A DNA stretch of 64,000 bases from Takakia lepidozioides (lineage: Eukaryota; Plantae; Bryophyta): assembly GCA_030704615.1 (NCBI GenBank), contig CM060731.1, positions 58,094,001 to 58,158,000 on the forward strand, read 5' to 3'. Below the pieces are notes generated by a model that was given only the letters and a program-made list of their open reading frames with translations, ran no database searches and was not told where the DNA came from. Position 1 is the first letter of the stretch. Each line of letters opens with the position of its first letter. Position numbers and translations under genes: made by a program. Positions 2,736 to 64,000 of the stretch are shown piece by piece.

Positions 2736-2820
2736 GCTGTTAGCAGCAAGGCAAGGATGAATGCATGATTTGTGCAGAGGCATGGATAGCTGAAGGAGCA
2801 GGGGTAGAGTGTGGGTACAG

Positions 2821-29576: not shown

Positions 29577-30527
29577 CAATATAGGAAAAGGGGGGGCCTT
29601 TGCAACGCCGCGGCGTCGGGAAAACGCCCATTTCGGGCACGGGGCATGCGCCGTATTTGCGACGCCCGGCAGTCGCATGGGTGTCACAAAAATGCAACAT
29701 ATGGGGGTCGCGAGCCCCCCGCCCCAACTCCCACGACTGCCGGACATCGCTTTTCGGGCCGTCCACGCCGATGGCAGGGGCCTCCTGCGAGCGACGTCTT
29801 GCCGTCGCTGCCCTCCAGCCGACGGCATTGGTGGGGGCGACGGCACGGCGTCTCATCCCCTTTTTTCTCTAACCTACCCAGGAGTCCCATCCTAAAACCC
29901 AAAAACACGTGGCGTAAGCCGGGTGATACGCCAAGCGACTATTGGGCGTGGCAAAAAAAAAAATGGCAGGAGCAGGAGTCGGGCTCCGCGACGCCCGGGC
30001 GTGGGTTCCCGCGACGCTCTGGCGTCGCTTTCTTTATATTCAATCAAAAAATTAAAACACATGGCGCATGCAGGGTGGTGGGCTCCGCGACGCCAAGGCG
30101 TCGCGGTTTGCGACCCCCGGACCAAAAAAACACGTCACAGGGGGTGTCGGGCGTTGCTACCTGCAAAGGGATTTGTGACGCCCGGCCGTCACGGCTTGCC
30201 ACCCCCGCCCAAAAAACACGTCGCCAATTCCAACGTCCTACAGTCGCGATGCCAGCCTGGTGGGAGGGGGGGAGGGGGTTGATTTTGGGGGTGAATTGGG
30301 GGTGGTTTTTGTTTTTGCCTGGTTTTGTTTTGGGGGATGGGAGACCTTACAGCTTCCATTTCTCTGATTTAGCAGGTACACAATTGAGCAAGCATGAATC
30401 GAGGGTGAGGATGGTGCGACACATGAATAAGATGGAAGATGGAAATATGGAAATATATTAACAAGAAATGAGCTGAAAAGCTCACAAGGGTTCAGTAGGC
30501 TGACCCTGGGACCTACATGGACTAGGA

Positions 30528-32705
30528 CTAGTCATCCTCATCCTCATCCTCAGTGGAGGATTCAGAGCTATCTGATGAGCCTGATGACTCCGCGCCCTTT
30601 GCCAGAGCACCTACAGGAGGTGGCGTTCCCCTAAGTCCCACAGAGCTCTCATCCAATCCCTGGCCATGACCCCCAACCTCATCCATACTAGTGCCCTGTA
30701 GTGCACTCATCCCCTCCATATTGGCCATGTTCTTCGTGAGGGATTGCCAACCATGCTCCTTGGCGTAGTTGTATTCTACCGGAGATGGCTTCCTCTCAAA
30801 CGCGCGTTGCTACATATGCCACAAATTAAAGTCAGTCCTTCACGATGATGGAGCCAGAAAAAAGACATAACAAAATACATAGGGAAGTACGACTTACTAA
30901 TCGCAAGATAAAACCCTTTGATCCGCCGGCACCCCACTTGTGTGTGGATTCGTGCTTGTCAAGGCGGACTGTTGTTGCTTCGCGTGCCCGCTCAAATTTG
31001 GCCTTGTTTGCCGCATCATTCTCTCCCGCAATAAGTGCATCCCACGATACCTATGCACACCCCTCCCCCCCCCCAACAATTAGTGAATTACACACATATG
31101 TTGCATCAAATCCACCTCATTAATGCACATGCGACAAATGGAAGGTGAAATGATTCAAGATTTGCCAACTTGTGTAATTCCATAAGGTGGTTTGGGTATG
31201 GCCCCCTTTTCCATTGCCCTCCGAATGATCTGTCTGGCACGGTACCTCTTGTCCTTCAAGTTTCGCCCCACCATCTCCATCACCCTTGTGTCACTCCAAT
31301 TGCCCGGAAACCAACGGTCTAACTCACGGGCATACGCTCGCTTTGCGCCAAAGTGCTGATCAGCCCATTCAATATGCAAAGGGAACCACCTCATTGCGAG
31401 TTCGAAGGCTGGCTTCTTCATAGCCTCCCAGAACGCACCGCAGGGGTCACCATGGCGATTCACCTCCACCGGTGGCACCACGATCTTTGCCAACTCCACG
31501 TCCTCTATTGCCAAGGCCATGTTCTTCTTCCCACCCTCTCCCTTCTTTGTAGCCTCCTTCCCTTGCTCCTTTGTTACCCCACTGCCCTCTGCCGCATGCA
31601 TACTCACCCCTTCCTCTCCATGGGACTTCTTCTTCTTCTTCTTCTTCTTTTTCTTCCCCTTCCCTGCTACTTCCTCTCTCTCCTTCTCCCTCTCCATTCT
31701 CTCTCTCTCATCGGCAGCCCCTTCATTGATGGTAAAAGGGATCTCGGGAGGTCGAATGAGGCCAGCCATGTTGCTGCCTCCTGAAGACAAATAACCCCCC
31801 CAAATTCAAAAAAAGAAACAAACAACAAAGAAAATCATGCATGCAAATGAAGGGACAAAACATGGAACAAGGTGCAACAGTTGTACCTTTGCAAGCTTGT
31901 CCAACTCGCCCCCGGTGTCACCCGATGTGGCAGGAGTCCCCGTTGCCGGATGTGCCCGCGATATCCCCTCCCAGAGCGCCACTGGAAGTAGATTCCAGAT
32001 GTGGAGCATAGCCGGTGGCGGCGCCCCGTACTCCAGGCCCTTCTTTGCTGACCGCTCAGGCTCAGGGGGCGGCATTGCTGTTCGGCTAGGCTGCTCCAAA
32101 CCGGCCCATACCTCCTCCCCCCCCCCCTCCCAAAAAAAAAAATGCGTAGCAGGGTAGAAGCCCTCACCCAGCTTGACTACTTCGAGGCGCTTCGCTATCT
32201 CGGCCACTTCATTGGCCCTCCTTGTCTCCTCCTCCCTCATCGACAACATTGGGCTAGCAACGACCACTTTCAAAGGGCCTTGAACCTAATGTTGGGCCTT
32301 GGCAAGTGCAGCCTTCGTTGCGGAGTAAGGGGTCGCTATGTGGGTGACATCCAAAAGTTGCCCATACCGCGCCCCCGAACGGGTGATGTGCTTGCCAAGG
32401 TACATTTCACCCGTCTTGGTGGCCGGGGTGGTGCTCAACTGAGCATCCGGCTCAGCAACAACCTCCCGAATAGGAGAGCTGGTTGAGCCGGCCCCTGGCG
32501 CATCCAAGATGGGGACAAGAGGGGGGTTACTGGCCTCGGGGGGAAGATGAGCCCTCCGGCTGCGGCTATCGACGGGGCTGGTAAACCGTGAGACGCCCTG
32601 GCGCGTCACACGTGCCGGCAGAACAAACAGATTGTCCGCCCCTTTCTTTGGGGCAAGGGACTTCTTCTCTTTCCCCATAAGTTGGCACCCGTCATGCAAA
32701 CCCAC
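30528..32705 (-). pseudogene. Spliced CACTA accessory ORF (TnpA/ORF2-like, family not recognised), outer copy
   Basis: Lys/Glu-rich segments, WFPLHIEWADQHFG and an acidic C-terminus; inverted homolog at 44230-46486. Confidence 0.55.
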
Positions 32706-35700
32706 AAGTTGGCCTCATTAGGAAACAACATCTACATTCCAGATCAAAAACAAAAAAAAACCAAGCATGTCGGGGGCTGAGAGCAGCAAGTGCTTGGGGT
32801 CTCGAGAGGGGGCAACAAAGAGTCTAAAAGAAAAATGTGGGAGGGGGGGGACTGAGCAGCAGCAGCAGCTGTTGAGCACCACGGGCTCAGTCAACCCCCC
32901 CCCCCCCCCCACCTTTTTTTTTTTTTGGTTTCCTAATCTCTCCCTCTCACTCCCTCTCACTATCCCTCTCTCTCCCTCTCTCTCCCTTTGGAAACTGGGT
33001 TTATGGAATTGTTGTCCTAACTTCCATCCTTGAAAATTTTGAAAAATTGGGTTGCAGGGAATTTAGATGTTTTTCATCCAGAATACATCCATTTTTCCCT
33101 AGTGAGACATTTCTTCATTAATACCTGTGAGGTTTTGCTTCATCCGGACATCAACCCGGAATATACTGATTGCAAAACTCCCGTCATTATTATTTTTTCA
33201 ATCCAACCTGGATGAAAAAAGGACTTCATCTAGCAAGACCTAAATACGGGACAAGACAGGTATAAATGAATAAAAAAACCCCGATGTTTTTCATCTAACC
33301 TAGATGAAAAACGGACTGCATCCGTCGAATTCAAGACAGGATGAACACACGATGTTTTTCATCTTCCATGAATGAGAAACAGACAACGTCCGTCGGGCGT
33401 ATGGGCTGGCGGATGTTTTTCATCCTAAGAAGGATGAATGACGAGCTGGACAGGGTAAAGCCCTGCGCAACCCTAATGTCTTTTTTTTTGCGCTGCGAGA
33501 GTGCGCGCGATGGCGGCTTGGAGGTGGCGATGGTGCTCGTGCTGCAGATACCATGAGCTGCCAATCCCTGGAGTGTTTAAGGCTCTTGTGAGCGCCGCCT
33601 CAGCGGGCTCTTTAAGGCGATGGCGGTGGCTTAGAGATGAGGGAAGATTCACTGTCTCATCTGTCTGTGTTTTTGCTGCACAAGGGAACCACGGCAGTGA
33701 TGGCGGAGGTACCACCTGCCTGCTTGTGAAGTTTCCCTAGGAGCCCTCCTCTGGATCTTTGATGAATGGCGGCGTCTTGGTAGAACAAGGAAGTCTCTCT
33801 CTCCCTCCCTTTATAAACCCTACCTTATGAGACAAAGCTCTTTTTTCTTGTGCTTGGCAAGACTTTGCTTTGGTTAAGGTAGCAGTGTTGTGGTATTGGC
33901 GGAGACCTCCCTGCACGGTTGGGCTTGTGGAGAGATGGTGACCATCCCCCAAACAGTAAAAAAGGTTTTTTTCTGTTTGTCTTGCTTCCCTACTTTCTTT
34001 GGCATTCTCTGCGCTTAGATTCAAGTATATTTGACCTCGATAGCAAGTGTGGAAGCCTGCTACTCACCTCATGCATCCTCACTAACTCACAATGCGTTGT
34101 GGTTGAGGGCTTCCACTTAATATGCTAAGGTCTAGGTGCTGCTGGATGTCAAGTGGGTTGCAGAGCTGGGGAAGGAATCGCTCGCCATGGACTCATCTTA
34201 AAATGTTGAAAAACTAAACTACTCTATGGTTTTTCTTGATCCTACCTCTTTCCTTCCTTTATTTATGAAGAACAAGTGTAATGCTTTCTAAGGTGGGCTA
34301 TTTCGGCCCAGCCAGTGGAAGACCTCTGCTTTGTTGTGACAGTCGGGGGTTTATGATGGCTTGTGTGAGAGGCACATCTGTTTTCCAGGCCCTAGTTTCC
34401 TTTGCTTACCTTATGGTAGTTGGAAACAAAATGAGAGGCTGCAAGGAACTGTTTGCTGCAACTACTCGGGTACCCATGATGGTAAAATGCCCCTATTATG
34501 TTCTAAGCCGTATGGCCTTATTAGCCAGATGCTTAGGCCAGGGTATGATGAAGAATCCGTTTGTGGCCATTCACCTGACACTGAAATATGTCAGCAATAT
34601 ATGTGGTGACCGGATTTTTGAGGCAGCCAGGGTGGTTAAGAGGAAATACCCCCTGGATATGGTAGAATGACATGGTCAAACGTGGAATGATGTGAATAGG
34701 GTGTGTTGACAGTGTCATATACTGTCACAAGATGTGTATGCAGTCTTTTATTTTTGCCTTGTTGTGTCATGAGATTTGATGTTCAGCTGTAGCAAGAAAT
34801 AATGGTATAGGGGTATTCTGGAAAATTCACTAGACATATCCCCCTCCCATGTGGGGGCAAGCTGTGCTACAGACCAGTTTAAACAAATACTGGCAGGGCA
34901 AGGTATTTAGATCTGCAAGTTTTCTTTTTTCTTTTGTAAAAAAAACCCTCCATGACACCCATGGGGTTTGAGTAAGTAGGCTTGGATTACAGCTTGCGGA
35001 CACCAGTCAATCTGGATTGTAAATCTGTATGACCATTTGACCTGCACCACATCAAGGCCAAAATATGGCCAAGTACCCGCCATCCCACCCAGACCTCTGA
35101 ATGTGTATCATGATCATGACTGGTGGTCAATCAACATCAGTGAAATACTCTTTGGGTTATGAATATTACTGACACGAACACATTACTGTGCATGGATGTA
35201 ATTCTGGATTTTCTAGGCTTGATGATTGATGGATGGTGCCACTGTTAAGTGGCTGATATGTCTGATTATTCTTCATATTCATGACAACAACCCTAGGGGT
35301 CATGTCTTTGTCTTGACATGACAAAAAGTATCTTCCCTCTCTTTTTTGCTGTTCACAAAAATAAACAAACCACAAGGAGAGAAGGTGCAGAAAAAGTTAA
35401 AAAGAGAGAGGGAGAGGGAGAGGGAGAGAGACAAAAGAGATGGAGAGAGTGGGTATTCATGTTATGTCAAGACATGAACAAGACCCATCAGGGTCATTGT
35501 CAATTAAAGACATAAGCAGCCCATGACAGGGCACCATCTAACACTTCCAGTCTTGTCATAGCAGACCAAGTGACAACACCCATTCGATCATGATAAAACA
35601 GGGTGGGAGGGCGGGGTTTATTCATGTTCAAATTCCTATAAGTAACCCAAGACATGCACCACGCAAGGCTCCTTTGGTAAGTAAGAACAGCCTGCCCTGC

Positions 35701-36875
35701 TACAGATTCAGGGTTGTTCATACAAGCACCTTGAAGGACCAGCCTGCAATTTACCAGATTTCCAACATGCAACCAAGTAAACTTCTTGGGCATGACAAAA
35801 CATATTGCAGCTTCACTCTTTGCTTTTTGTAAGTACCCCAAGACATGCATCATGCAAGGCTCCTTGGGTAGGTAAGAACAACCTGTCCTACTACAGACTC
35901 AGGATAGGTTCATACAACACTACAGCAAATGGGGGGGTTTGCGACGCCAGCCGCGCCCCCACACCCCGCGCGGCGTCGAGCGTGCGACGCCAACCCGCGG
36001 AGCGTGTTTGCGACACCGGGCTGTCGCAGCCAAACCCCACAGGAGTGAAACCTGGCGCCAGGGCCAGGCGGCGACGCCGGGCTGTCGCACGGAGTGATGA
36101 AGGGAAAATGGCAGCCCTTCTGTGCGACGCCCACGCGTCGCCCCCAGCGAAGGGCAGAAGGCAGCCCTTTCTGGCAATGGCCGGTCGTCGCACACCGGAA
36201 AAAAAAAAACCATTTCTTGCCTTTTCTTTCTTTGCAGCCCTTTCTTGCGATGCCCGGCCGTCGCATGGTGGCATGAAGGGCAAAAGGCCCCTGCGACGGC
36301 CGGGCGTCGCAAATTGCCCGGCTGCCCTATTCTTTCAAAACAAAAAAAACATGTCACAGTTTGCGACGGCTGGCCGTCGCCGTTTGCAACCCCTGGCCTC
36401 ATAAATCCATTCAAAAAATAGGTCGCAGTTGACGACGGTTGGCCGTCGCCGTTTGCGACCCCCGGCCTCATAAATCCAAGAAAACGCGTCGCAGTTTGCG
36501 ACGCATGGGGGTCGCAGGCGGCGACGACAGGGCTTTCTAGGTTTAGGGTTAGGGCCTTTGGGGGTTCTTAGTTTTTTTTTTTTTCACATGGTACTGGGGT
36601 AGGGTGTTTGTTTTTCTTTATGGTTTAGCTTGTTGTTGTGGACCTTCTTGTAGATTGTGACATTCATTTTGATAATTCTCTTGATACCACATCTGTATGT
36701 GTTGCTCCAACATATTCATTGCCTCTGCCTTCTTTCTTGAAAGACTACCAGCCACAGCCATATTTGATGAATCGTAGAAATAAAGTACAATATGCATGTA
36801 CATGTACATGTACAATCAATCGAAGGGATGGGTCCAGTTCGGTGCGAGAATTGTTATGTAGCTTTGATTTTGTGT

Positions 36876-39258
36876 CTAATCAACTTGAACATCATCATCC
36901 AGAGCCTCTTCATCCTCATTAAGCCGCAAGTCTTCTTCGTCATCGGAGTCGTCGTCATAAATGGCCCGGCTCTCAAAAGGCACCTCCGAATCATCCTCCA
37001 CCTCGTTGTCAGTGGCCGTGTCTTCGTCTCTTTCTCCAACATCCGTATCTTCTAGAGCTTCATCATATAGGGTCCAGGATGCATTGTCCGGGGCGTCATC
37101 ATCCTCTTCTACCCCCTCTACCCAACCTCCATCATCAGCATCATTTTGACCAGTCTCTCCGTCCACCGCAATTGTCTCACCCCATGGAGATCCGAGACCA
37201 TGATAGATACGTCTTCCTCTTGGCTGAGCATGCACAACCACCTTCCAATTCCCCTCTCTTGTTTTGTCATCGGAGAAGAAAACTTGCTCCATGTCTGAAG
37301 GCCGTGAAAAAGGCTCATCGGAGGGACAATGAGTAGGGTTGAGCCTATCTGCATTGACGCGCATGAAACCACAATCATCTTGCACTAGTGTTGCGGAGGG
37401 CTCCACAAGATGTGGCTGGAACCACCTTCCCTTGAAGAGAAGAGGCCGGTAACTTGTATACTGAAGTTGGAGTATGCTCTCAAGCTTTCCAATGTACTCA
37501 AGTTTACTCATAGCAGGTCGTGTATCTCCCTTGCCCCACATGGAGTCTTGCCAATATGTGGCACACAAGCCAGAATCAAAGGTTGTTTTGCGCTTCATGT
37601 CAAGAGCACGAATGCAGAAATGACGACCGTGAACCCAAACCGCCGTGTATGAGGTCGCGAATTGAGAGGGGCCCCTTGCAATGTCTTGCACCAAATCTGA
37701 AACCACCTCTCCTTGAGCAATGGCGTCATAAACTGAAGTCCGAAGCCACTGTTGGAATGAACTTAGAGGCTGCAATTCCATGGGCAAATTTTGTGAAGGA
37801 ACATTCCGGCGGCCCGCTCCTCGTCGTGGGCGTCTAGTAACCGGCCTTGGATGGTTCCGCCTCCATGCAAGCGTCTCCACCTCTCGTTGCTGAACAAGAT
37901 TATTGTATATTGCCTCCCACTCATGTATGGATGGGGTGTTCTTCAGTATCAATCACCAAGGTCGGCAATTTTACCCTCTTCGATTTTTTGGGCAAAACGA
38001 TGTCCTTGGTTCGTGCATCCTCCTCTTCCTTCCACATCCGAGGGGATTCCTCATCCACCCTTGCCATGTATTCCGTGCAATAGAACATAGCTTCTTGCAA
38101 CGTATACCCCTCCGCCATGCTACCCTCCGGGTGCGCCATTTGTCTTACAAATCCTTTCAAAGTCTTCATATAATGCTCAAGGAAGTACATCCACCGAAAA
38201 TGAACGGGGCCGGCTATCGAAGCCTCTTCCACTAAGTGCACTACCATCTACCGTCTCCCCCAATACTCGAACTCCACATTTTCTCGGATGGGGGTGGGAG
38301 GGTCGAGATGATTCCCCCAACAACGAGGTTGGACGGTCCTCAGTAACATAGTCCTATGCGCTTCCCATCGGGGGCGAGGATCCGGCTTAGGCCGCCCAAG
38401 CCGAAGGGGAGGAAACCTAGGGCGAAGCCGACCCCTCCTAGGGGTTCGGGGGGCACATGCACGTAGAGGTGGAGGTGGAGGTGATACTGTGGTGGAGGAG
38501 ATGAAAGTGGAGGTGGTTGAGGATGTAATGTCGGAGGTGCAGCCGGGGGTACAACGTCCGGATCAGGCAAAGAAACAGACGGGGGGGGGGGGGGGGGGGG
38601 CTGCTCGTTGCCGGCCATAACGCCTACGACACCTACGATACCCCTCGACCCTACGCATCTCATCTACGTGCTGCTGGGGGAACCAACTGGTCACATCGGG
38701 CACATGCTCTGGCACAAATTCTGCAAGTAGACCGACGTAAAATGCCTCATGTGCAATGTGATTACGAGCTTGGGCATCAAGTCGTGGCTGCATTGTCCGT
38801 AGTGAACGACGCATCAATACTTATGTCGTAATTTTGATTCATGTATGCTTACCAATCATACTATATTATTAGATAAACCTAAATGTACCTTGAATGAATG
38901 TTAATGAGAGGGGTGGGAAAAACACTCACCTTTGCCGCATCCGCAATCTTGTTCTTCTTGTAATGTTTTTCGACAACATGCGGTCGCCACCTCGGTGGTC
39001 TGGTGCCGCCCGGCGGTATCCGTTCCCAACACTTAGTGCACCAACACTCAATCCTGTCGGGGGGGTCGACGTGGTTGGACGGGGTGGCCCGCAAGGGGGT
39101 AACCCGCGGCGCGCCCGACTCGATCCCGGAGTGTCAACATCCTCCGCATCACCTGAAAATTGGCCCCGGTCCCTTCTACGATTGTGCCCGGCAGCCTGTA
39201 TTGGATCAAGTGCAATGGGTGCCTCCTCGCCACGAAAAAATGGTCGCTCTAGGGCCAC
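36876..39258 (-). pseudogene. CACTA transposase remnant (N-terminal CWCTKC segment, DUF4218/DUF4216-like region; catalytic core deleted)
   Basis: EEASIAGPVHFRWMYFLEHYMKTLKGFVRQMAHPEGSMAEGY, DSGLCA, YIGKLESI, LFKGRWF, DEPF..MEQVFF, acidic tail. Confidence 0.88.
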
Positions 39259-43935: not shown

Positions 43936-43987
<52 letters not shown>

Positions 43988-44229
43988 GGAGAAAGAGGGA
44001 CAGAGAAAGGGAGAGATCAGGAAACCAAAAAAAAAAAAATGGCAGGGGGGGGGAGTGACTGAGCCCGTGGTGCTCAGCAGCTGCTGGTGGTGCTCAGTCA
44101 CTCCCCCCCCATCTTTTTCTTTTCTCTTTGTTGCCCCCTCTCGAGACCCCGAGCACTTGCTGCTCTCAGCCCCCGACATGCTTGGTTTTTTTTGTTTTTG
44201 ATCTGGAATGTTCCTTATGAGGCCAACTT

Positions 44230-46486
44230 GTGGGTTTGCATGACAGGTGCCAGCTTATGGGGAAAGAGAAGAAGTCCCCTGCCCCAAAGAAAGGGGCGGA
44301 CAATCCGTTTGCTCTGCCGGCACGTGTGACGCGCCAGGGCGTCTCACGGCTAACCAGCCCCGTCGACAACCGCAGCCGGAGGGCTCGTCTCCCCCCCAAG
44401 GCCAGTACCCCCGCTCTTGTCCACATCTTGGATGCGCCAGGGGCCGGCTCAACCAGCTCTCCTATTCGGGAGGTTGTTGCTGAGCTGGATGCTCAGTTGA
44501 GCACACCCCCAGCCACCAAGACGGGTGAAATGTACCTTGGCAAGCACATCACCCGTTCGGGGGCCCGGTATGGGCACCTTTTGGATGTCACCCCCATAGC
44601 GACCCCTTCCTCCGCAGCAAAGGCTGCACTTGCCAAGGCCCAACGTCAGGTTCAAGGGCCTTTGAAAGCCTCCATTGCCAGTCCATTGTTGTCGATGAGG
44701 GAGGAGGAGGCGAGCAGGGCCAATGAAGTGGCCAAGATAGCGAAGCGCCTTGAAGAAGTCAAGCCAGGTGAGGGCTTCTACCCTCATACTCATTTGGGGG
44801 GGGGGAGAGGAGGAGGTATGGGCCGGTTCGGAGTAGCCTAGCCAATCAGCGACACCGCCCCCTGAGCCTGAGCGGTCAGCAAAGAAGGGCCTGGACTACG
44901 GGGCGTCGCCGCCGGCTATGATCCACATCTGGAATCTACTTCCAGTGGCGCTCCGGGAGGGGATAGAGCGGGCACATCCGGAAACTTGGACTCCTCCCAC
45001 ATCGGGTGACACCAGGGGCGAGTCGGACAAGCTTGCAAAGGTACAACTGTCGCACCTTGTCATATGATTTATCCTTTCTTTTGCATGCATGATTTTCTTT
45101 GTTGTTTGTTTCTTTTTTTGAATTTGGAGGGGTTATTTGTCTTCAGGAGGCAGCAACATGGCTGGCCTCATTGGTGCAGTCACGTGGGGTTGCCAATGAG
45201 GGAGAGCACGTGGTGTTCATGAAGGACCCGAACACCAAAGGTAAGAAGAAGAGGCCTCGATCTCCCGAGATCCCTTTTACCATCAATGAAGGGGCTGCCG
45301 AGGAGAGAGAGAGAAGGGAGAGGGAGAAGAAGAGAGAGGAAGTAGCGGGGAAGGGGAAGGAGATGGTCGTGGAGAAGGGGAAGGAAAAGAAGAAAAAGAA
45401 AAAGAAGTCCCATGGAGTGGAAGGGGTGAGTGTGCATGCGGGGGAGGGCAGTGGGGTAACAAAGGAGCAGGGGAAGGAGGCTACAAAGAAGGGAGAGGGT
45501 GGGATGGCCTTGGCGATACAGGACGTGGAGTTGGCAAAGATCGCGGTGCCACCGGTGGAGGTGAATCGCCATGGTGACCCCTGCGGTGCGTTCTGGGAGG
45601 CTATGAAGAAGCCAGCCTTCGAACTCGCATTGAGGTGGTTCCCTTTGCACATCGAGTGGGCTGATCAGCACTTTGGTGCGAAGCGGGCGTATGCCCGTGA
45701 GTTAGACCGCCGGTTTCCGGGCAATTGGAGTGACACAAGGGTGATGGAGATGGTGGGGCGAAACTTGAAGGACAGGAGGTTCCGTGCCAGACAGATCATT
45801 CGGAGGGCAATGGAAAAGGGGGCCATACCCAAACCACCTTATGGAATTACACAGGTTGGCAAATCTTGAATCATGTCACCTTCCATTTGTCGCATGTGCA
45901 TTAATGAGGTGGATTCGATGCAACGGATGTGTGTAATTCACTAATTGTTGGGGGGGGGGGGTGCATAGGTATCGTGGGATGCACTCATTGCGGGAGAGAC
46001 CGATGCCGCAATCAAGGTCAAATTTGACCGGGCACGTGAAGCAACAACAGTCCGCCTTGACAAGCACGAATCCACACACAAGTGGGGCGCCGGCGGATCC
46101 AAGGGTTTTATCTTGCGATTTGTAAGTCGTAATTCCCTATGGATTTTGTTATGTCTTCTTTCTGGCTCCATCATTGCGAAGAACTGACTTTAATTTGTGG
46201 CACGTGTAGCAACGCGCGTTTGAGATGAAGCCATCTCCGGTAGAGTACAACTACGCCAAGGAGCATGGTTGACAATCCCTCATGAAGAACATGGCCAACA
46301 AAGAGGGGATGAGTGCACTACAGGGCACTAGTATGGATGAGGTCGAGGGTCATGCCCAGGGATTGGATGAGAGCTTTGTGGGACTTAGGGGAACGCCGCC
46401 TCAGTGCTCTGGCAAAGGGCGCAGAGTCATCAGGCTCATCGGATAGCTCTGAGTCCTCCATTGAGGATGAGGATGAGGATGACTAG
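44230..46486 (+). pseudogene. Spliced CACTA accessory ORF, nested copy
   Basis: Inverted homolog of 30528-32705 with GT-AG introns near 45040-45147, 45853-45968 and 46120-46209. Confidence 0.55.
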
Positions 46487-47003
46487 TCCTAGTCCATGTA
46501 GGTCCCAGGGTTAGTCTACTGAACCCTTGTGAGCTTTTCAGCTCATGTCTTGTAAATATATTTCCATCTTTTCATCTTCCATCTTATTCATGTGTCGCAC
46601 CGTCCTCACCCTCGATTCATGCTTGCTCAATTGTGTACCTGCTAACACAGAGAAATGGAACTGTAAATTCTCCCATCTCCAAATACAAAACCAGGAAGAA
46701 AACAGAAAACCACCCCCAATTCACCCCCAAAATGAACCCCCAACCCCCCCACCAGGCTGCCCTCGCGACTGCAGCACGTCGCCAAGGACGACTGTTTTTT
46801 TGGGCGGGGTCGCAAGAAGCGACGGTCGGGCGTCGCAAACCCCATTTGCCGGCAGCAAACGCCGACAACCCCCCCTGCGACGTGTTTTTTAGTCCGGGGG
46901 TCGCAACCCGTGACGCCCTGGCGTCGCGGAAACCGCCACCCTGCCTACGCCATTTTTTTTTTAATTTAAAAAAAAAAAAAACGCGACGCCGGAGCGTCGC
47001 AAC

Positions 47004-52857: not shown

Positions 52858-54242
52858 AGCGATCGCCAACTTGGTGGTCGCTCCATTTTCCGGAAAATAA
52901 AAAAATAAGCGACCGCCAGAACTGGCGGTCGATCCATTTTTCAGGGAAAAAAAAAAAAAAAAAAAAAAACCGCCAGAACAGGCGGTCGCTCCATTTTCCG
53001 GAAATAAAATAAATCAGCGACCGCCAACATAGGCGGTCGCTTCATTTTCAAAAATTTTAAAATAAATAAGCGACCGCCAACATAGGTGGTCGCTTTATTT
53101 TCAAATAAAATAAAATAAAAGCGACTGCCAACAATGGCGGTCGCTTGATTGTCAAAGCAATTAAAATAAAAGCGACGCCAGTCATGGCGGTCGCTCCATT
53201 TCCAACAACATTTTAATAAAAGCGACCGCCAATAGTGGCGGTCGCTGGATTTACAAAAAACAAAACAATTGCGGCGACCGCCCGTAATGGCGGTCGCAAC
53301 AATTAAAATAAATGCGACCGCCACAAATGGCGGTCGCTGCAATTACAAAAACAACAATACCGGCGACCGCCCCTAATGGCGGTCGCTCCATTTTCCTCCA
53401 AGAAACAAAAAAACGACCGCCAGTAACGGCGGTCGCTTCATTTCCAAAATAATTAAAATAAAAGCGACCGCCAGTAATGGTGGTCGCTGGATTTTGTAAA
53501 AACAAAAACTGCCAGTAACGGAAGTGAGGGGAGAATGACTGGGGGCTTCTATGCCCCCCCGCCTCATTCCTCGCTCCACGCGCAGGGCAGACCTCGTAGA
53601 AGCGACCGCCACCATGGCGGTCGCTCCATTTAAAAACAAAAAGAAACGACCGCCACAAATGGCGGTCGCTCCATTTCGTCAAAAAAAAGAAAAAAAACGA
53701 CCGCCAGTAATGGCGGTCCCTGCATTTATGAAAACAAACAAAAACTTCGAGCGACCGGAAGTGAGGGGAGAGTGGCGTGACCGGAAGTGAGTAGCGGTCG
53801 CTATTTCTTTTTTAATTTTGAAAAACAAAGCGACTGCCATAATTGGCGGTCGCGTTCATTTTGTTAATTTTCAGAAATGTATTTGCCACCGTTCGAGCGC
53901 CAATACGGCAGTCACTTGTTTTTTTTTAAAACTTAGGCGACTGCCAATACGACCGCCAATCTTGACTTGAAGCGACCGCCATCATAGCGGTCGCTATTTA
54001 TTTTTTTAATTCAACAAATAAAGCGACCGCCAGTGCGATCGCCAATCTTGCTTTAAAAAAAAAAACAGTTGAAGCGACCGCCAATATGGCGGTCGCTATT
54101 TCTTTTTCTATTCCAAAAAATAAAGCGACCGCCAGTGCGACCGCCAATCTTGCTTTAAAAGAAATAAAAATTGAAGCGACCGCCAATACGGCGGTCGCTA
54201 TTTCTTTTTAAATTTCAAAAAACAAAGCGAATAGGCGGTCGT
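52858..54242. repeat. Array of about 24 short palindromes AGCGACCGCC-N3-5-GGCGGTCGCT with ~51-bp period; probable subterminal array of a third CACTA-type element
   Basis: Units start at 53972, 54023, 54074, 54125, 54176 and 54227, among others; A/T-tract spacers; followed by TTTTACCTAGTA (CACTA-like end) at about 54317-54328. Confidence 0.8.
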
Positions 54243-54469
54243 GTTCATTTTGTTAATTTTCAAAATGTATTTGCCACCGCCACCGTGTCGGCGACGTGGC
54301 TGCTTAAGTGGCAGTATTTTACCTAGTACTATTTTTATCAGAATATTCCCCGAACCTGACGTGACGGAGGTCCTGTCAGCGTCAGGTCTGTCGTGACCTG
54401 ACACTGACGGACGGACGGACGTGACGCTGATAACCGGGCCGAACACCAACTGGTTATGGGTCATCCCTC

Positions 54470-56117
54470 CGTACAAAGTTCAGCGAAGAAGACGGGGTCC
54501 ATGGTTTGAAGTCTCGTGACTACCACAATCTATTGCAAGACATCTTGCCGATTGCAGTACGTGGGACATTGATTCCCGAGGTTCATAAGACAATCTATAG
54601 ATTGGGAGGCTTGTTCCGGTGGATTTGCTCCAAAGAGTTGGAGGAAGCGGATTTTCCACGCATGAAGAAGGAGGCGGCGGATGTAATGTGTATGTTGGAG
54701 ATGCACCTTTCTCCCTCCTTCTTTGACATCCAAGTGCACTTGATAGTGCACTTAGTGGAAAAGGCTTCGATTGCCGGCCCCGTACATTCTCGGTGGATGT
54801 ACTTCCTTGAGCGTTATAGAAGACTTTGAAAGGATTGACAAATGGCGCACCCGGAGGGTACCATGGCGGAGGGATATACGTTGCAAGAAGCTATGTTCTA
54901 TTGCACGGAGTACATGACAAGGATGGATGAGGAAGCCTCTCGGATGTGGAAGGAAGAGAAGGATGCACGAACCAAAGACATCATTTTGCCCAAAAAATCG
55001 AAGGGTAAAATTGCCGACCTTGGTGATTGAGCAAGCGCATGACTTCATACTGAGGAACACCCCATCCATACATGAGTGGGAGGCAAAATACAATAACCTT
55101 ATTCAGCAACGAGAGGAGATGCTTGCATGGAGGCGGAACCATCCAAGGCCGGTTACTAGACGCCCACGACGAGGAGCGGGCTGCCGAAATGTTCATTTAC
55201 AAAATTTGCCCATGGAATTGCAGCCTCTAAGTTCATTCCAATAGTGGCTTCGGACTTCAGTTTATGACGACGTTGCTCAAGGAGAGGTGGTTTCAGATTT
55301 GGTGCAAGACATTGCAAGGGGGCCCTCTCAATTCACGACCTCATACACGGCGGTTTGGGTTCACGGTTGTCATTTCCGCATTTGTGCTCTTGACATGAAG
55401 TGCAAAACAACCTTTGATTTTGGCTTGTGTGCCACATATTGGCAAGACTCCGTGTGGGGAAAGGGAGATACACAACCTGCTATGAGCAAACTTGAGTACA
55501 TTGGAGAGCTTGAGAGCATACTCTAACTTTAGTATACAATGTACCGGCCTATTTTCTTCAAGGGAAGGTGGTTCTAGCCACATCTTGTGGGGCCCTTCGC
55601 AACACTAGTGCAAGATAATTGTGGTTTCATGTGTGTCAATGCAGATAGGCTCAACCCTACTCATCGTCCCTCTGATGAGCCTTTTTCACGGCCTTCAGAC
55701 ATGGAGCAAGTTTTCTTCTCCGATGACAAAACAAGAGGGGGGAATTGGAAGGTGGTTGTGCACGCTCAGCCAAGAGGAAGACGTATCTATCATGGTCTCA
55801 AATCTCCATGGGGTGAGGCAATTGCGGTGGACGGAGAGACTGGTCATAATGATGTTGATGATGGAGGTTGGGTAGAGGGGGTAGAAGAGGATGATGACAC
55901 CTCGGAGAATGCATCCCAGACCTTATATGATGAAGCTCCAGAAGATACGGATGTTGGAGAAGGAGACGAAGACACGGCCATTGACAACGAGGTGGAGGAT
56001 GATTCGGAGGGGCCTTTTGAGGGCCGTGCCATTTATGACGATGACTCCGATGACCAAGAAGACTTGCAGCTTGATGAGGATGAAGAAGCTCCGGATGGTG
56101 ATGTTCAAGTTGATTAG
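54470..56117 (+). pseudogene. CACTA transposase C-terminal remnant of the outer element
   Basis: GLKSRDYH, PSFFDIQVHLIVHL, GPVHSRWMY, HPEGTMAEGY; inverted homolog of 36876-38247 with extra stops. Confidence 0.88.
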
Positions 56118-58820
56118 ACACGAAATCAAAGCTATAAACAATTCTCGCATCAAACTGTACCCATCCCTTCGATTGATTGTACATGTACATGCATATTGTA
56201 TCTTATTTCTACGGTTGATCAAATATGGTTGTGGCTGGTAGTCTTTCAAGAAAGAAGACAGAGACATTGAATACGTTGGAGCAACACATATATATATCAA
56301 AATGAATGTCACAATCTACAAGAAGGTCCACAACAACAAGCTAAACCATAAAGAAAAACAAACACCCTACCCCACTACCATATGAGAAAAAAAAAAAAAA
56401 AAACTAAGAACCCCCAAAGACCCTAAACCTAAACCTAGAAAGCCTGGCCGTTGTTGCCAGCAACCCCCACGCGCCGCACGCTGTGACGCGTTTTTAGCAT
56501 ATATGCGGCCAGGGGTCGCAAACAGCGACGGCACGCCGTCGCAGGATGCGTCCTGGTTTTCTTTTTTGAAAGAATTGGGCAGCCCCTGTTTGCGACGCCC
56601 ATCCGTCGCCAATGCATTTTGCCATTCATGCCACCATGCGACGGCCTGACATCGCTAACAAGGGCTGCGATGAAAGAAAGGGCAAGAAAGGGCTGCATTT
56701 TTTGCGCTGGCGACGGCCGGCCGTCGCCAGAAAGGGCTGTCTTTGCCCTTTGCTAGGGGGCGACGCGTGGGCGTCGCACGGAAGGGCTGCCTTCTGCCCT
56801 TTATCCACCCATGCGACGGCCGAGCGTCGTCGCATGGCCCCGGCGCCAAGTGGCAACCCGCGGTGTCTGTTTGTGACGTTCGGGCGTCGCAAAAAGACGC
56901 CGTGGGGTTGGCGTCGCATGCTCGGTGCCGCGCAGGGTGTGGGGCGCGGCTGGCGTCGCAACCCTCCCCCCCCCCCCCCCCATTTGCTGTAGTAACAGTT
57001 GCAGTGTGGGCATTGTGACAAGCACGGGTATGGAGAGGCCCAGTGTTATGGTTTGCATCCTGAGTTGCGCCCAGGCCAGTTCCAAGGGAACAATGGTGGC
57101 CGGGGGCGAGGTGGAGCAGCCCATAGAGGACGAGGTGGTTAGGCAGGAGGTGCAGGCCTAGGGCAAGCTCAACATGGCAAAGACATGGAGGTCAGGGTGT
57201 TGACCAAGGCATGGCCAACCGGCTTCAGCAGCTAGAGCAGAGGCTTGCTGCTATGGCCACAACTTAGGTGGTACCGGCTCCAAGGCCGGATGGTCCACCT
57301 CCTGCACTTGAGGGAGGAGACATGGGAGGCATGAGATTCATGTGCGGGGCAACTCTACCACTAGTGAGGGGTGACACTACCACTACCACTATGGGTGGGG
57401 CACCAATACCACTAGTGCAGGGCAGCACTACCACTACCACTACCACTATGTGCGGGGCAACACTACCACTAATGCCAGTGGAGTCGGCTGCGGCAGTGAC
57501 TCGAGGAGCAGCACGAGTTCCTGAGCCACGAGGTGCAGAGGTGGAGTTGGATCCACAGCGTGGGGAGGCAAGCCGTCAGGCCAGACTTCCTCAGTCATTC
57601 ATATTGGCGGAAACAGTATCGACGCATCCATGGCACCTAGTTCTCGCCCGACTGCTACCGAGGCGGAGGTTACTATGCTGGGAGAGCCACACAAGCAGCA
57701 CCACTACCTGCTGCCAAGGCTACGGCAGCTAGTGTGCTGCTGGGGGCGGCCACATCTGTGTGCCAGGCTCCATTGTTCTTGGCTACCATGATTGCGACGC
57801 CGGGGGTAAGACTAGCTGAAGTGTTTAGGCTTGGCAGCTACACTCTGTGAGAGTGGGGATGTTACTTCATCTTCTGTGGACATAGTGGGAGGTGTAGTGC
57901 CGGAGGGATCCTCGGATTTGAGGGTCAAGACTGCCACGACGACGCCATGGCCAGCTGCAGCTACCAGGTTGGTGAAGCTGCCAGCTAGGCCAGCCATTGA
58001 GCGCGCCATGGTGATTTCTGGGGTTGTCTTGTTAGACAACCATGATGACATTTTCTGTTCAAGTGGACTCGCAGGCAAGAGGTATCGGCCACTACGGGAC
58101 TTATTGGACTCGGGAGCTCAGCCGTTGATGTTGGGTAGAGCTGCTATTGCAGGCTTGGGCCTCACGGAGGCGGACATGAAGCCTTGCCCTTTCCAGATAC
58201 AGACATCTCTGGGAAGATCAGAGCAGGCTTAGGGCATGACACGGCGTGAGTTGGCTATCAGACTACGGCCGGATCATCCTACAGATGACTCAGTGATGAG
58301 AGCCAAGGCCATTGTGACAGACGCGGTCTCGTACGATGTCCTGGTTGGTGGGGCAGTGTTGTACCCCATGGGCTTCACCCTGGATTTTTGGGAGGAGTCA
58401 TCTTCTTATAGGCCTGGATGGCAGTCAGGGGAGGGCCGGCGTGTGCAGCTCATTGTGACGTTCATAGGAGGAGTTGCGGTTGCCCAGCGGGGCAAGATGC
58501 CGTTACTAGCAGCATTCACAGCTGCAGTGAGTTGGCCTGGAGAGTTGCTTAAAGACAATGCTCATTCAGAGGATGTGTCACCTCCGGAAGATCAGGATGA
58601 CATGTATGGTATGGCGGAGTTGCATGCCATGGTTGCTCAGACTCCATTGTGGGACACGAGCAAGGATTTGCAGCGGGTTGCTGATCAACGAGTGCAACAA
58701 GCCTGGGTAGAGGCTTTTGTACCATCAGGAGATGAGGAGAGTGCGGTGATTGCACTAGGACCACCTTAGTTGTCGCCATTGGACAACACACCTATCGTGT
58801 GGCAGTATCCGGATGAAGGC

Positions 58821-59790
58821 ATTTGCCTTCTAAACTTGTTTGGCGGGATCAGCACTGGATTAGCTGCTGTATATAGGCAGGTGTACGGGTTAAGAGGTAC
58901 CTGTATATAGAGAGGGATGCAACTGCATGATGCATCTCACTTCGCCATGTTGCTTAGTTAGTGCAGCAGTACCCTGAGTGTTTGCCGGTGTCTACGGTTC
59001 GTGGATATCAGCAGACCTTGCTAGCAGACATTTTGTTGCTGGGGGCGTAGGATTTGGAGCGGGTTGGCTCCATTCACTTGGTAGTGGCAGGTTGGCCTTG
59101 TCAAGGGCATTCATCAACCGGACATGGCAATGGATTGCGAGACTCGAGGTCGGGTCTGTTTTGGGAGATGGTGCGGATTTTGTGCAATTTACAGCTTCAT
59201 CAAGCTGTATGCATACATATTGGAGAATGTGCCACTGTTGGGCGATTCTCGGGCCAGGGTGATGGCCAGTGTGCATCAAGTCTGGTCGTGGCTTGGGTCA
59301 GCAGTGTTGCTGGATGCAGCTGCAGTGGGGTCACGGGTTCATCGTCCACGGCTATGGTGGACTAACTTGATGCCACCCGCATTGCTCAAGCGTGCATTTG
59401 ATGGGGTGCAACGGCCAACACATTTGACAATGGACAACATCTTAGACACGAGGAGGCAGTCTCAGCGTGTGAGACAGGATGACCGTTCTCCTTTGGCAGT
59501 GGTCAACAAGGTGGGTCAACCACGAGTAGCACTACCTACACTGCTCAGCTTCCCAAGATCGGATGCTTTCCGGGATGGTGGACCTGGCCTCATGTGGGAT
59601 GCTTAGTTGCAGCAGTTAGTGGAGCCTAATGCCGATGAGCGCGAGCGGGCTACGGGTTTTTCTACTTGGACCACGGCGGTGCATTCTCTTTCTGAGGCAT
59701 CACGTCGTCAGGTGTTGGGGCAAGCAATGGATCTCAATTGCTTGACTTGGATCATTAGCTTGAGTATGGCTGAGCAGTGCAGGTTGCGGA
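58821..59790 (+). pseudogene. DNMT3-like C5 cytosine methyltransferase domain within pol
   Basis: Motif I LNLFGGISTG, II YIERD, IV AGWPCQGHS, V SGLFWE, VI ILENVP, VIII HRPRLWWTN, IX ERERATGF, X RRQVLGQAM; stops and frameshifts present. Confidence 0.9.
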
Positions 59791-60689
59791 CAACTTCTTC
59801 CACACATGTCCCTTGACATACTCCCTGCCTACCGAGACGGTACAGGCAGTGAGTGGGGGCGAGCAGGTGAGGACCACAGGGTGTAGACATCCATGGCACA
59901 CGTGGGAGGTGCTCGAGGTTCAGAGGGAGTTGGCAGCCAAGGCGGCGGTGATGGATGAGGTTGGGGATTCTTCTCGGATTGAGGAGGTCCTCAAGGATGA
60001 GATGATGGGCCAGGATGAGGCCTTGTCATTGACAGAGCAGGCAGTGGGCACTGCTCAAGAGGTTGCAGCATAACAACCACGGGACCGGTCTCCTACCTCT
60101 AAGTCTGCTGGACTTAAGGTTGCAGTTACGGAGGACAATTGGGAGTCTGACATTGGACCTATTGTCATCGGAGGAGAGAGACGACGTATATGGCAGTTCC
60201 TGAGGGCTTACGGGAATTGCTTTGCCTCTCGTGATACGGTGGAGGAGCATGAGAGACATGTTCAGGTGGTGCATCGACCGGGTTTGGTCAATCGGGATGC
60301 GGATGGATTGAGTCGCAATCCATGCACAAGCCAGCAGGATGACACTGGAGCTCGGTGGCATGGTGAGACAGACGAGGAGATGGTGCCAGGATGGCATGCA
60401 TCTACCTTTTTGTGTATCTTGGCATCGGGAGGTCAGGTTGGACCTACAACAAGGATGACTGTAGACGGAGTGTCTGAGGACCCTGAGGCTAGTGATGAGC
60501 CAGGTGGTGCGAGAGATATACATGAGGATTTGGTTGTGTTGGACTACCTCCGCAATGGAGACACGACAAATCACTGTGACTGCCAAGGAGAGGGATCGGA
60601 TCCTACAATGAGCCAAGAGGTTCAAGTGGGAGGGGATACACCCGCTCCGAGTATGGGAGGATGGTCGGGTGAGGATTGTGCCTCACCCA

Positions 60690-61947
60690 ACACAGCGTGC
60701 ACGGTTAGTGCGGCATGCCCATGAGGAGTTGGGGCATTTTGGAGTGCGATGCACTCATACGTGTTGTTGGCGTGGTATGCAATCAGAGGTGCAACGGTTC
60801 GTGGCTAGGTGCATGGTGTGTAACAGGGTACCTGCTTCATTCAACGCCCCTACACCCCAGTTGCATCCTCTTCCGATCATGGGATTGGGCTACATGTGGA
60901 GTCTTGACTTCGCAGGACCGTTGTCACTGACGATACGCCACCACAGATATGTGTTGGTGATAGTGGAGCACTTCTCCAAGTGGATTGAGTTGGTTCCGTT
61001 GCCTGACAAGGCTAGTGAGGGGGCTGCATATGCATTCTTGGATCATGTGCTTAGCCAATTCGGTGCTCCAGCTGAGGTACTCACAGACCAGGAAAGAGAG
61101 TTCTTGGGGGAGTTTTAGGCTTTGTGTGATAAAGCCTTGATAGACCACCGCACCACTTCTCGGGATCATCCTGAGGCCGATAGCTTGGCAGAGAGAGTTG
61201 TTCAGACGGTGAAGAGGGGTTTTGCGCAAGTATGGCTTGCAGAATGGACACCTAGGAGATTGGGATCTTCAGGTACCTTGGTTAGCCATGGGCTATAGGT
61301 TCAGTAAGCAAGCATCACTTGCCTCCTTCTCACCATATTTCCTTCTCTTTGGCCGAGAGCCGGATTTGCCTGCAGCCATTCGTAGGGACACTGCTCAAGT
61401 TCTCAATCTTGACGATCCGGACGTGTGGGTATGTGTATGTGATCATCGTGCAAAGTTGTTCAAGAAAGTCATGCCCATAGCTTTTGATAACCTTGCCATT
61501 GCATATCACCGTGATACGTTGAGGTATGTCACTATACGTGGTGGAGGATATCGTCCTGGGGTTCGGAGGTTTAGCCCTGGTGACTATGTTTATTTGCAGC
61601 AGACTGCTCATACGACCCTGGATGTGACTGCAGGGCGTGTTATTCTGAGGGTTCGAGAGGTGTTGTCCTCAGGAATCATGATCTTGGAGGGTCGGGATAG
61701 CATGACTTGAAAGGACCATATGCTTAATTGTGCGCCATGTTACCTTCCCAATGTCGATGGCAGATTTGACCCAAACTTGGCAGTGGTACCTGCAGGTTTG
61801 AGGTGCATGTTCTGTGGGTCTGCCAAAGGGGAAGCCACCATGCTGGTGTGTGATCGATGCTCAAGAGATTGGCACATGGGATGCTTGACACCACCTCTTG
61901 AGAGGGTTCTTGATGGAGATTGGTTATGTCCACACTGCTTGGGATAG
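60690..61947 (+). pseudogene. Integrase with C-terminal PHD finger
   Basis: HAHEELGHFG..CMVC, WSLDFAGPL, VLTDQ; PHD CMFC..CDRC..HMGC..WLCPHC at about 61804-61938. Confidence 0.88.
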
Positions 61948-62207
61948 TGGCAGTGGATATGATTAGTGGCAGCTAACAAGACATGCGGGGCCGAGCTCAT
62001 AGGAGTCAATACACGAGATCCCAGGCTCAAGTTCACAGGTTTCAAGACGGTGATTAACGATGGGGCGATTCTCGCACCCGACCTTTTGATCTATCGAGTT
62101 TGAGTGTAGTAGGAACAGTGCTGGAGGATTTTGTGAGGCTATGGTCACTATCACATCTTGTGGCTACCTGGACTTAGAGGGACCTAAGCACCAGCTAGGG
62201 GGGCGAT

Positions 62208-62505
62208 TGTGTAGACTAGTGACTGCCATAGTGGGCAACATAGTGGCAGCCTAGTGACTGACTAGTTGCAGCCTAGTGGTTGGACTAGTGATGGACTAGT
62301 GGTATACTAGTGTGTGGTGTCCACAGGTGTTGTGTGGTTTTGGGACAGCGATGTAGTTGTGTATGCGCACGACACTATGTTGATTAATCAGTAAAGTAAA
62401 AATGGACGCATACTTTTTGGGCACCTTTGGCTCCTGAGAGAGTGCATTTGCTGTTCAAAATAATACCCCCTAGTGGTCCATTCAAGGTTATTCCATGATT
62501 TCACA
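62208..62505 (+). repeat. 3' LTR of the DNMT-Gypsy element
   Basis: Preceded by polypurine tract AGGGGGGCGAT; termini TGTG...CACA; internal CTAGTG repeats. The partner 5' LTR is not found in the window. Confidence 0.65.
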
Positions 62506-62599
62506 TTGAGTGTTCACCAATATCACAAAGTAATTCGATTTTTTTTTAATTTAAATTTTTGCATTAAATTTCATTTCTTTGTGCGCACATCAGAAAAAG

Positions 62600-63822
62600 A
62601 ATTGACTCCATAATGAGAGAAGTTGAACAAAGAACAAGCCAAAATAGTGATGGAAGAGCTACACGAAGGAATTGCAGGAGGACACTTCAGCTCTGACCTG
62701 ACAGCAAAGAAGATATTATTAGCAGGTTACTGGTGGCTGGAGACACTTATGAACACTGTCAACAGTGTGATGTTTGCCAGAGGATGGGACCAATAGAACG
62801 AACTGGGAAGGGTGCTATGCACTACCAACAGAACCATTTCAATGCTGGGGACTAGACTTCGTGGGACCCATTAAACCTCCAGCAAGATACACACATAACC
62901 AATACATCCTCACTGCCACTGACTACACTACCAAATGGGTAGAGGCCAAGGCACTAAGAGACAACACTGCCAGGTTGACAGCCAAATTCTTATATGAAAA
63001 CATCATCACATGATTTGGTTGCCCACTGGAATTCGTTAGTGATCAAGGATCACAATTTATAAATGATGCCATAAAATGCTTAACAAAGGAGTTCATGATC
63101 ATACATCACAAGAGCACTGCTTACTATCCCCAAGGAAATGGCCAGGCCGAATCTACCAACAAGATATTATGCACTATCTTAACCAAGATAGTAAATGCCA
63201 ATCGTACAGATTGGGACACCAAAATGAACACAACACTATGGGCACTCAGGACATCATACAAGGTGACCACGAAACATACACCATTTCAACTGGTGTATGG
63301 AGCAGAGCACTATTACCCATTGAATGCATGATACCCACACTACGAACCGGAACTCATGAACGATGGGGTTTAGAGGAATCTCTACGAGTCAGGGAACATG
63401 AGTTATTTCATCTGGAAGAAGTTCGGACAGACGCTGCAGATAACATGGCACGAATTCAAGAACAACGAAGAAAAAGAATATCCGAAGGGAAAGAAAAATC
63501 TTTCCAGGATGGGGAAATTGTTTTATGGTTACCAAAAATCAAGAAAATGAAACTGGGAGGAAAATTGAAAATGCTATGGATGGGACCATTTCAAATCAAA
63601 AGGGTACATGACAATGGAATTGTTGATTTGCAGACCTTGGAACAAGAATTCGTGGGACGAATAAATATTAACAAGTTAAAAGGCTACAAAGGGATACATG
63701 ACAAAGCCCTTATACATGACGTATACGCCAACGAGGAAGACCAAACTGCAGATGAGGAGCGTGAAACCGCCAGTGCATACTACATTCATCACGACACGGT
63801 GAATCGGCATGTACTAAGATAG
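62600..63822 (+). mobile_element. Integrase remnant of a different Ty3/Gypsy element
   Basis: [52 protein letters not shown]; frameshifted. Confidence 0.88.
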
Positions 63823-64000
63823 GTGGCAATACGACTTTAGGGCACCGCTACGTTTAGACCACCATTCATTTGGAGGACAACATTACCACCTCGTATAGTG
63901 TATGGTGAACCGTGGCCAGCACATATGCCCTACAGAACCGTGAACAAATACGAAGCAGCCAACGAGTCACTGCTTGTGTTAAACTCCGAGATGTATGCTC

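Follow-up and report, generated by a model that had tools for sequence, protein, structure and literature searches.

A Gypsy retrotransposon family of mosses and liverworts carries a DNMT3-like cytosine methyltransferase followed by a conserved stop codon

In the papers that can be searched, elements of the kind reported here, retrotransposons carrying a DNA cytosine methyltransferase (DNMT), are described from algae only. We analysed one in the moss Takakia lepidozioides, in a stretch of 64,000 nucleotides (contig CM060731.1 of assembly GCA_030704615.1, positions 58,094,001 to 58,158,000 of the forward strand; hereafter the window, with positions counted from its first letter), together with its relatives. 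The element is a dead copy of an old, abundant Gypsy family and not a one-off capture. Three features extend the first-pass annotation of the window: a putatively leaky stop codon, split repeats with an internal junction and, in chlorophyte relatives, a second architecture. To the reading as a whole, a dead copy of such a family whose live members likely package their own methyltransferase and would methylate their cDNA before integration, we give a probability of about 0.72.

KnitGypsy-Dnmt3 of Klebsormidium nitens (PMC5890265) resembles this family in having an unpermuted, intronless Dnmt3 domain within a Gypsy polyprotein, with the catalytic residues kept and purifying selection, and in a DIRS-like repeat layout around Gypsy domains; the likeness is drawn from the published description. 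It differs in that the present host is a land plant, and the accessible text of PMC5890265 names no PHD finger, leaky stop, target duplication or junction. SymbioDIRS-Dnmt3 of Symbiodinium combines a retrotransposon Dnmt3 of shown CG activity with repeats in the order A-coding-B-A-B, but this element and SymbioLINE-Dnmt have a tyrosine-recombinase DIRS or a LINE backbone, whereas ours has a Ty3-like reverse transcriptase (RT), a DDE integrase and a PHD finger (PMC5890265, in part). The EpiLTRs of Cymbomonas and Euglena also bear a cytosine methyltransferase, but in the accessible part of bioRxiv 10.64898/2026.05.21.726589 their DNMTs are sister to DNMT4 and accompanied by a Dam methylase and a chromodomain. 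Plant and animal host DNMT3 (PMC6453930, in part; DNMT3A/B in the PDB) shares the fold and motif order and gives the best sequence and structure matches, whereas the element domain is ~20-24% identical to DNMT3A/B, has no PWWP, ADD or introns, and sits inside a polyprotein. A PHD finger within a green-lineage Gypsy polyprotein is known from Gypsy-7a_cRei and REM1 of Chlamydomonas, but the legend available for Gypsy-7a_cRei lists no DNMT (PMC9940879).

No land-plant description of a DNMT3-Gypsy family, nor of the RT-RNase H-DNMT form discussed below, was found in the searchable literature, which excludes subscription papers, Repbase and theses. As far as their accessible parts go, this holds for PMC12344493, PMC11982613, 10.1101/363937, 10.1101/2021.02.12.428880, PMC6317226, PMC12885004, PMC6453930, PMC6673714, 10.1101/2021.11.30.470311, PMC13069868 and PMC13468544. 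Streptophyte retroelement DNMT3s with unnamed hosts are mentioned in the parts available of PMC12344493 and bioRxiv 10.64898/2026.05.21.726589, and their supplementary trees may hold bryophyte rows.

A DNMT3-like domain in a Gypsy polyprotein

Read in its three forward frames, 56950-62600 holds a protease, the C5-methyltransferase motifs, a short RT/RNase H remnant, an integrase and a PHD finger, in this order. We searched the frames of the window against Pfam with stop codons read as X and found PF00145 at 59069-59191 with 30.8 bits (E=2.6e-7; cut-off 22 bits). The conserved motifs are I (LFGG, 58836-58847), IV (PCQ, 59096-59104), VI (ENV, 59223-59231), VIII (HRPR(LWWTN), 59340-59351), IX (ERERATGF, from 59637) and X (GQAMD, 59718-59732). 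This is the canonical, unpermuted order, and an assignment to DRM was rejected, since DRM has motifs VI-X before I-V. A family profile scored two window frames at 324 and 129 bits, whereas 50 shuffles read in six frames reached at most -1 bit. Run against the PDB, both P0008 (a Marchantia relative) and a profile of 24 sequences ranked DNMT3A first; the profile gave it 92 bits, followed by DNMT3B (83), DRM (52/42) and HhaI (41), with DNMT2 far lower. The predicted structure of another relative, P0002 (predicted local distance difference test score 87), has DNMT3A/B as its top fold matches (template modelling scores 0.65/0.83). By similarity, the domain is thus closer to DNMT3 than to DRM, DNMT1, DNMT2 or bacterial enzymes. 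The first-pass annotation, made from the DNA letters alone, had proposed just such a non-permuted, DNMT3-like domain in a pseudogene, lying between protease and RT remnant within a Gypsy element, and all of this holds: the protease DSG lies upstream at 58107 and an RT/RNase H remnant downstream, two frameshifts (about 58872 and 59205) and four stops break the methyltransferase, and ~410 RT/RNase H codons are gone.

Relatives were gathered as proteins (P-numbers), with a 193-residue C-terminal piece of the window domain as query, and as loci on metagenome contigs (L-numbers), collected by profile scan as the best 80 of 256 relatives. The 46 longer homologous proteins, at 39-79% identity, include named hosts Marchantia polymorpha, Calypogeia fissa and three Sphagnum species, with identities of up to 76% in these genera; one locus, L003, is a 96% match to a Sphagnum jensenii protein. 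The first-pass annotation would have been refuted by a missing PF00145 match, or by a one-off insertion out of frame with pol in a family otherwise lacking the domain. PF00145 does match, and the domain is in frame in relatives: P0013 and P0030 hold DNMT, RT and RNase H within a single protein model, and L004, L015, L024 and L028 have an intronless DNMT in frame with the protease and, across one stop, with RT. Domain order was mapped in the 66 metagenome loci of at least 4 kb: 47 read protease-DNMT-RT, 4 read RT-RNase H-DNMT-integrase, and the remaining 15 are cut or deleted, with retroelement domains beside the DNMT in all 66. The metagenome loci were retrieved via their DNMT, and because many are near-copies of one another, their counts overstate independence. 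In the host's own sequencing run X1, 48,672 contigs, a number not taken as copy number, map to 55800-63200, and those over the DNMT include many variants. Domain trees built from retroelement and phage rows (a quick IQ-TREE tree and FastTree) group the window domain with rows from Calypogeia, Marchantia and Sphagnum-type elements in a clade of 13 (SH-like approximate likelihood ratio test (SH-aLRT) 99 in the quick tree; FastTree 1.0).

Among 136 near-full DNMT domains, the catalytic Cys is kept in 119 (75 as PCQ, 38 as ECQ) and EN in 131. The Cys, ENV, RxR and the motif I and X residues are conserved between lineages of only 36-50% identity. The ratio of non-synonymous to synonymous substitution rates (dN/dS) of the DNMT is 0.08-0.27 between lineages where dS is measurable, which points to purifying selection between lineages.

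The following features were assigned to the element and its immediate neighbour.

56983..56994, no strand assigned: end of a CACTA transposon, the neighbour that abuts and truncates the Gypsy element (terminal motif; DUF4218/DUF4216 upstream)
56996..57830, + strand: frameshifted gag remains, with a degenerate zinc knuckle in which Tyr stands in place of His and a C-terminal linker (tblastn match to residues 331-547 of Marchantia P0008; translation)
57996..58466, + strand: aspartic protease, LLDSGAQP with DSG at 58107 (homology; Asp_protease_2 on relatives P0027 and P0031)
58791..59789, + strand: DNMT3-like C5 cytosine methyltransferase domain (PF00145, homologues, PDB sequence and profile matches, fold search of relative P0002)
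60071..60079, + strand: in-frame stop TAA CAA CCA closing the gag-protease-DNMT frame (homologous position in 24/26 close loci)
60092..60570, + strand: RT/RNase H remnant with the RT start, a few residues past YIDD, the RNase H end and a linker (against L015 and L024)
60573..61710, + strand: DDE integrase, H2C2 at 60687-60830 and core at 60891-61172 (Pfam, tblastn)
61804..61938, + strand: PHD finger with all zinc ligands kept (PF00628, 36.5 bits)
62194..62206, + strand: polypurine tract region, conserved in relatives (comparison with relatives)
62207..62374, + strand: terminal repeat B, with CGCACGACA at its end (motif shared by relatives)

The window copy is cut at the CACTA terminus and has lost the 5' repeat A along with most of gag; the N-terminal gag was sought elsewhere in the window and gave no match at E<=1. 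Relative to L015, ~410 RT/RNase H codons are deleted; other host-run copies run on into RT at this deletion, with loose ends at 60227, 60231 and 60261. The C-terminal part of the integrase is displaced by a frameshift near 61222. Integrase H2C2, rve and PHD each exceed their Pfam cut-offs. The order protease-RT-RNase H-integrase, with a Ty3-like RT and a DDE integrase, is that of Ty3/Gypsy, and the second frame of L024 has Ty3-G as its best PDB match (E=8e-102). A DIRS order was rejected, because DIRS elements have a tyrosine recombinase and no target duplication, whereas rve and H2C2 are present here and relatives show target duplications.

A second architecture, RT-RNase H-DNMT-integrase-PHD, is found in chlorophytes, in 43 of 49 proteins having both domains. 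Its members include P0082 and P0199 (Scenedesmus), P0264 (Hariotina), L056 and L078-L080, and its DNMTs form one subclade (SH-aLRT 96) within the retroelement clade. L056 has identical 122-nt ends (1-122 and 13348-13469), as in a circular or tandem assembly. L078-L080 have a frame of 1900-2600 residues before pol and a second long frame after it, which suggests tandem copies. Further relatives occur in Mesostigma (P0260) and Haematococcus (P0262), and in P0130, P0186 and P0117 a G-patch or Tudor domain is added to the DNMT-PHD polyprotein. The profile search for full-length relatives gave no Klebsormidium, hornwort, fern or lycophyte name among the matches listed.

Several other observations concern the relatives. 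In a comparison of P0001, P0008 and L004, the Marchantia DNMT is 76% identical to that of the Sphagnum-type locus and 72% to that of the liverwort Calypogeia; this departure from the host tree may reflect either old paralogous lineages or horizontal transfer. P0026 has an NCBI entry that assigns this DNA cytosine methyltransferase to a Candidatus Obscuribacterales bacterium, but it groups with the retroelement locus L024 and likely comes from eukaryotic DNA that was binned with a metagenome. Among the gene models of Marchantia, many represent parts of the element (P0004-P0009, P0013, P0016, P0018), and several end ~90 residues past motif X, near the conserved stop site. In a more distant family (L030, L033-L077), whose DNMTs are ~40% identical, the domain order and the split repeats are the same, but no stop follows the DNMT. 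Viral contigs L081-L143 encode methyltransferases with an HRxRxWTN-type motif at 24-36% identity, outside the retroelement clade.

A conserved stop codon and split terminal repeats

The gag-protease-DNMT frame is closed by an in-frame stop 226-340 nt 3' of the DNMT. Of 26 close loci, 24 have an in-frame TAR-CAA-YYN (18 TAG, 6 TAA), as does the window, and the other two keep the TAG with an adjacent C-to-T change. The stop is common to about five lineages whose DNMTs are 48-67% identical. Its context is TAG-CAA-CCA in L015 and L041, TAG-CAA-TCA in L024 and TAA-CAA-CCA in the window. According to the accessible part of PMC2754532, the type I read-through consensus of tobacco mosaic virus (TMV) is UAG followed by CAR-YYA, and UAA in this context is likewise read through in plants. 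The elements share the CAR-YYA context with the TMV signal as described there, but their stop sits after the methyltransferase and not at a gag/pol or replicase boundary. Since a stop with a TMV-like read-through context follows it, the DNMT would be made at the level of Gag. The first-pass annotation had placed the DNMT within pol; its position between protease and RT stands, but in this subfamily the frame is interrupted, with the DNMT ending the gag-protease-DNMT frame at the conserved stop. A stop ahead of the DNMT in L033 was also considered and attributed to decay, as most relatives have TGG there.

We then compared 33 loci with themselves for terminal repeats. No simple pair with one full long terminal repeat (LTR) at each end was found among them, while an A...B-A-B layout is present in seven (L028, L033, L036, L039, L051, L070 and L077), of which L028 belongs to the close group; several others have partial layouts. 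The relatives begin with TGTC and end with CACGACA, and B starts directly after the polypurine tract. In the seven complete relatives, a 4-bp target duplication is exact in four, has one mismatch in two and is absent in one (AAGG, GGTC, CCAA, AACC, AYTA, GYTA). Ends of the TG...CA type and a short target duplication are Ty3/Gypsy traits. A Phygy-type insertion preference for NCGN (PMC6317226, in part) does not agree with these duplications. At the internal B|A junction, the element ends surround a 2-nt spacer (CA-NN-TG) in 10 of 10 junctions, four of which have one transition in the motif. The split repeats, the 4-bp duplications and this junction suggest integration from a circle.

The window copy, like L012, keeps the tract and a single B, and the A-B that follows the first B in full-length relatives is absent from it. 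Host-run contigs stop at the B end motif with differing flanks, and B is preceded there by either of two contexts, the second of them rich in pyrimidines (13 and 3 contigs), as B-A-B predicts for the host family. The annotation as an LTR retrotransposon thus needs adjustment: the Gypsy domains are there, but full-length relatives have split repeats and not a simple LTR pair, and the element, proposed to run to 62505, ends at 62374. With direct repeats split in this way, the family would be overlooked or wrongly delimited by searches for LTR pairs.

Possible roles of the methyltransferase

The proposed life cycle begins with translation. It is quite likely that ribosomes mostly halt after the DNMT and sometimes read through, which would make the DNMT as abundant as Gag and far more abundant than RT and integrase. 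Gag-protease-DNMT would be the main product, with RT-RNase H-integrase-PHD as the read-through extension, and the enzyme would be packaged with Gag and then freed by the protease. The DNMT of live copies is probably catalytically active, and probably on CG. Its putative substrate, for which we see roughly even odds, would be the cDNA of the element itself, methylated inside or close to the particle; new copies would then arrive pre-methylated and resemble host heterochromatin. For integration, a model that we hold to be an evenly balanced possibility takes (B+A) as the functional LTR: reverse transcription would yield (B+A)...(B+A) DNA that circularises, and the integrase would open the internal CACGACA-NN-TGTC site, so that a two-repeat circle would give A...B-A-B and a one-repeat circle A...B. 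The nearest solved structures to the PHD finger are those of CHD4, KDM5A, KDM5B and PHF21A, fingers that bind unmethylated H3K4. We lean slightly towards the prediction that the integrase-borne finger recognises unmethylated H3K4 and keeps new insertions away from promoters that are active.

Several observations weigh against this scheme. As for the stop, the context in most Sphagnum-type loci is CAA-CCC, which differs from CAR-YYA by one base, none of 38 loci of the more distant family has the stop, and splicing offers an alternative route past it. As for selection and descent, dS between lineages comes close to saturation, and for close pairs the DNMT dN/dS is 0.34-0.55, similar to the decay of other domains. 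The domain trees comprise retroelement and phage rows only, and family members without a DNMT could not show up among loci retrieved via their DNMT. The window PHD has no acidic residue just ahead of its first Cys, and the A...B form may equally come from B-B recombination. Self-methylation has left no compositional trace: the element and a Gypsy element of the window that lacks a DNMT have the same CpG observed/expected ratio (0.51 each), and this is not below that of host genes (0.31-0.58). Finally, the KnitGypsy-Dnmt3 domain was inactive in yeast, a result that its authors called inconclusive (PMC5890265, in part). In favour of activity, the same paper shows CG methylation in yeast by the related Dnmt3 domains of Symbiodinium DIRS elements.

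The yeast result and the CpG depletion that does not exceed background, together with ECQ in place of PCQ in 38 of 136 relatives, are what one might expect if the domain were retained for something other than catalysis or other than DNA: it might bind cDNA or RNA in the particle, methylate RNA or serve as a decoy that diverts host silencing. Yet the catalytic and motif residues are kept at 36-50% identity, and the nearest structures are DNA enzymes, with DNMT2 far lower, so that we regard such a role as unlikely. It is less likely still that the enzyme acts after integration, on the insertion site or nearby chromatin and not on cDNA, guided by the PHD finger like the ADD-methyltransferase pair of animal DNMT3. 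PHD and DNMT3 do occur together in both architectures, and the finger's closest structures include readers of unmethylated H3K4; but the protease would cut the DNMT loose from integrase-PHD, and in this subfamily the bulk of the DNMT would be produced with neither of them.

That this copy alone picked up a methyltransferase fragment from its host, a bacterium or a phage, or that the motifs match by chance, might be suspected from a window copy that is broken and out of frame and from the HRxRxWTN-like motif in phage methyltransferases. This explanation is refuted by the same domain in the same place in several plant genera and by the dN/dS values between lineages. The low identity of the phage enzymes, their position outside the retroelement clade and the scores of the shuffled sequences also speak against it. 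No prokaryotic donor was found in prokaryotic genomes, in a single-protein scan that reaches close relatives only. Methylation of the cDNA by a packaged enzyme is the reading that we favour.

Neighbouring sequence and implications

The rest of the window holds an intact-looking PLS-E-E+-DYW PPR gene of 1084 aa with seven 303-nt repeats (2794-6048, + strand), a PMEI-domain frame (9389-10000, - strand) and FANCI exons (12093-25025, + strand) with an RT-bearing LINE-like insertion between exons (16219-17883, - strand). This gene content is that of a land plant. Two further decayed Gypsy elements, at 25270-29100 (- strand) and 62600-64000 (+ strand), gave no DNMT match. Related transposon pieces form inverted pairs (35918-38250 with 54741-56994; 30354-32990 with 43966-46660), one of them CACTA (DUF4216/DUF4218), and an array of ~51-nt hairpin repeats at 52870-54270 probably represents CACTA subterminal repeats.

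A wider interpretation, which we offer tentatively and consider rather doubtful as a whole, is that these elements form an undescribed Gypsy clade across the green lineage (chlorophytes, Mesostigma, liverworts and mosses). Its DNMT3 module would date from early green plants and have moved between two places in the polyprotein. In bryophytes it might be dosed by a leaky stop; circles might integrate with a DDE integrase through an att site in the repeat, giving pre-methylated copies and possibly an unrecognised source of de novo methylation in Marchantia.

The split repeats likely explain why the family has been overlooked by paired-LTR finders, and together with the internal CA-NN-TG junction and the duplications they suggest that integration follows a route unusual for a DDE integrase. 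In annotations, copies of the element appear as genes, in some cases as methyltransferases; they may distort DNMT inventories and the reading of methylation mutants with derepressed transposons. The role of retrotransposon-borne methyltransferases has been open since 2018 because the known hosts are hard to manipulate; Marchantia polymorpha offers tractable genetics together with copies that have an unbroken gag-protease-DNMT frame (P0008, Mp4g09160).

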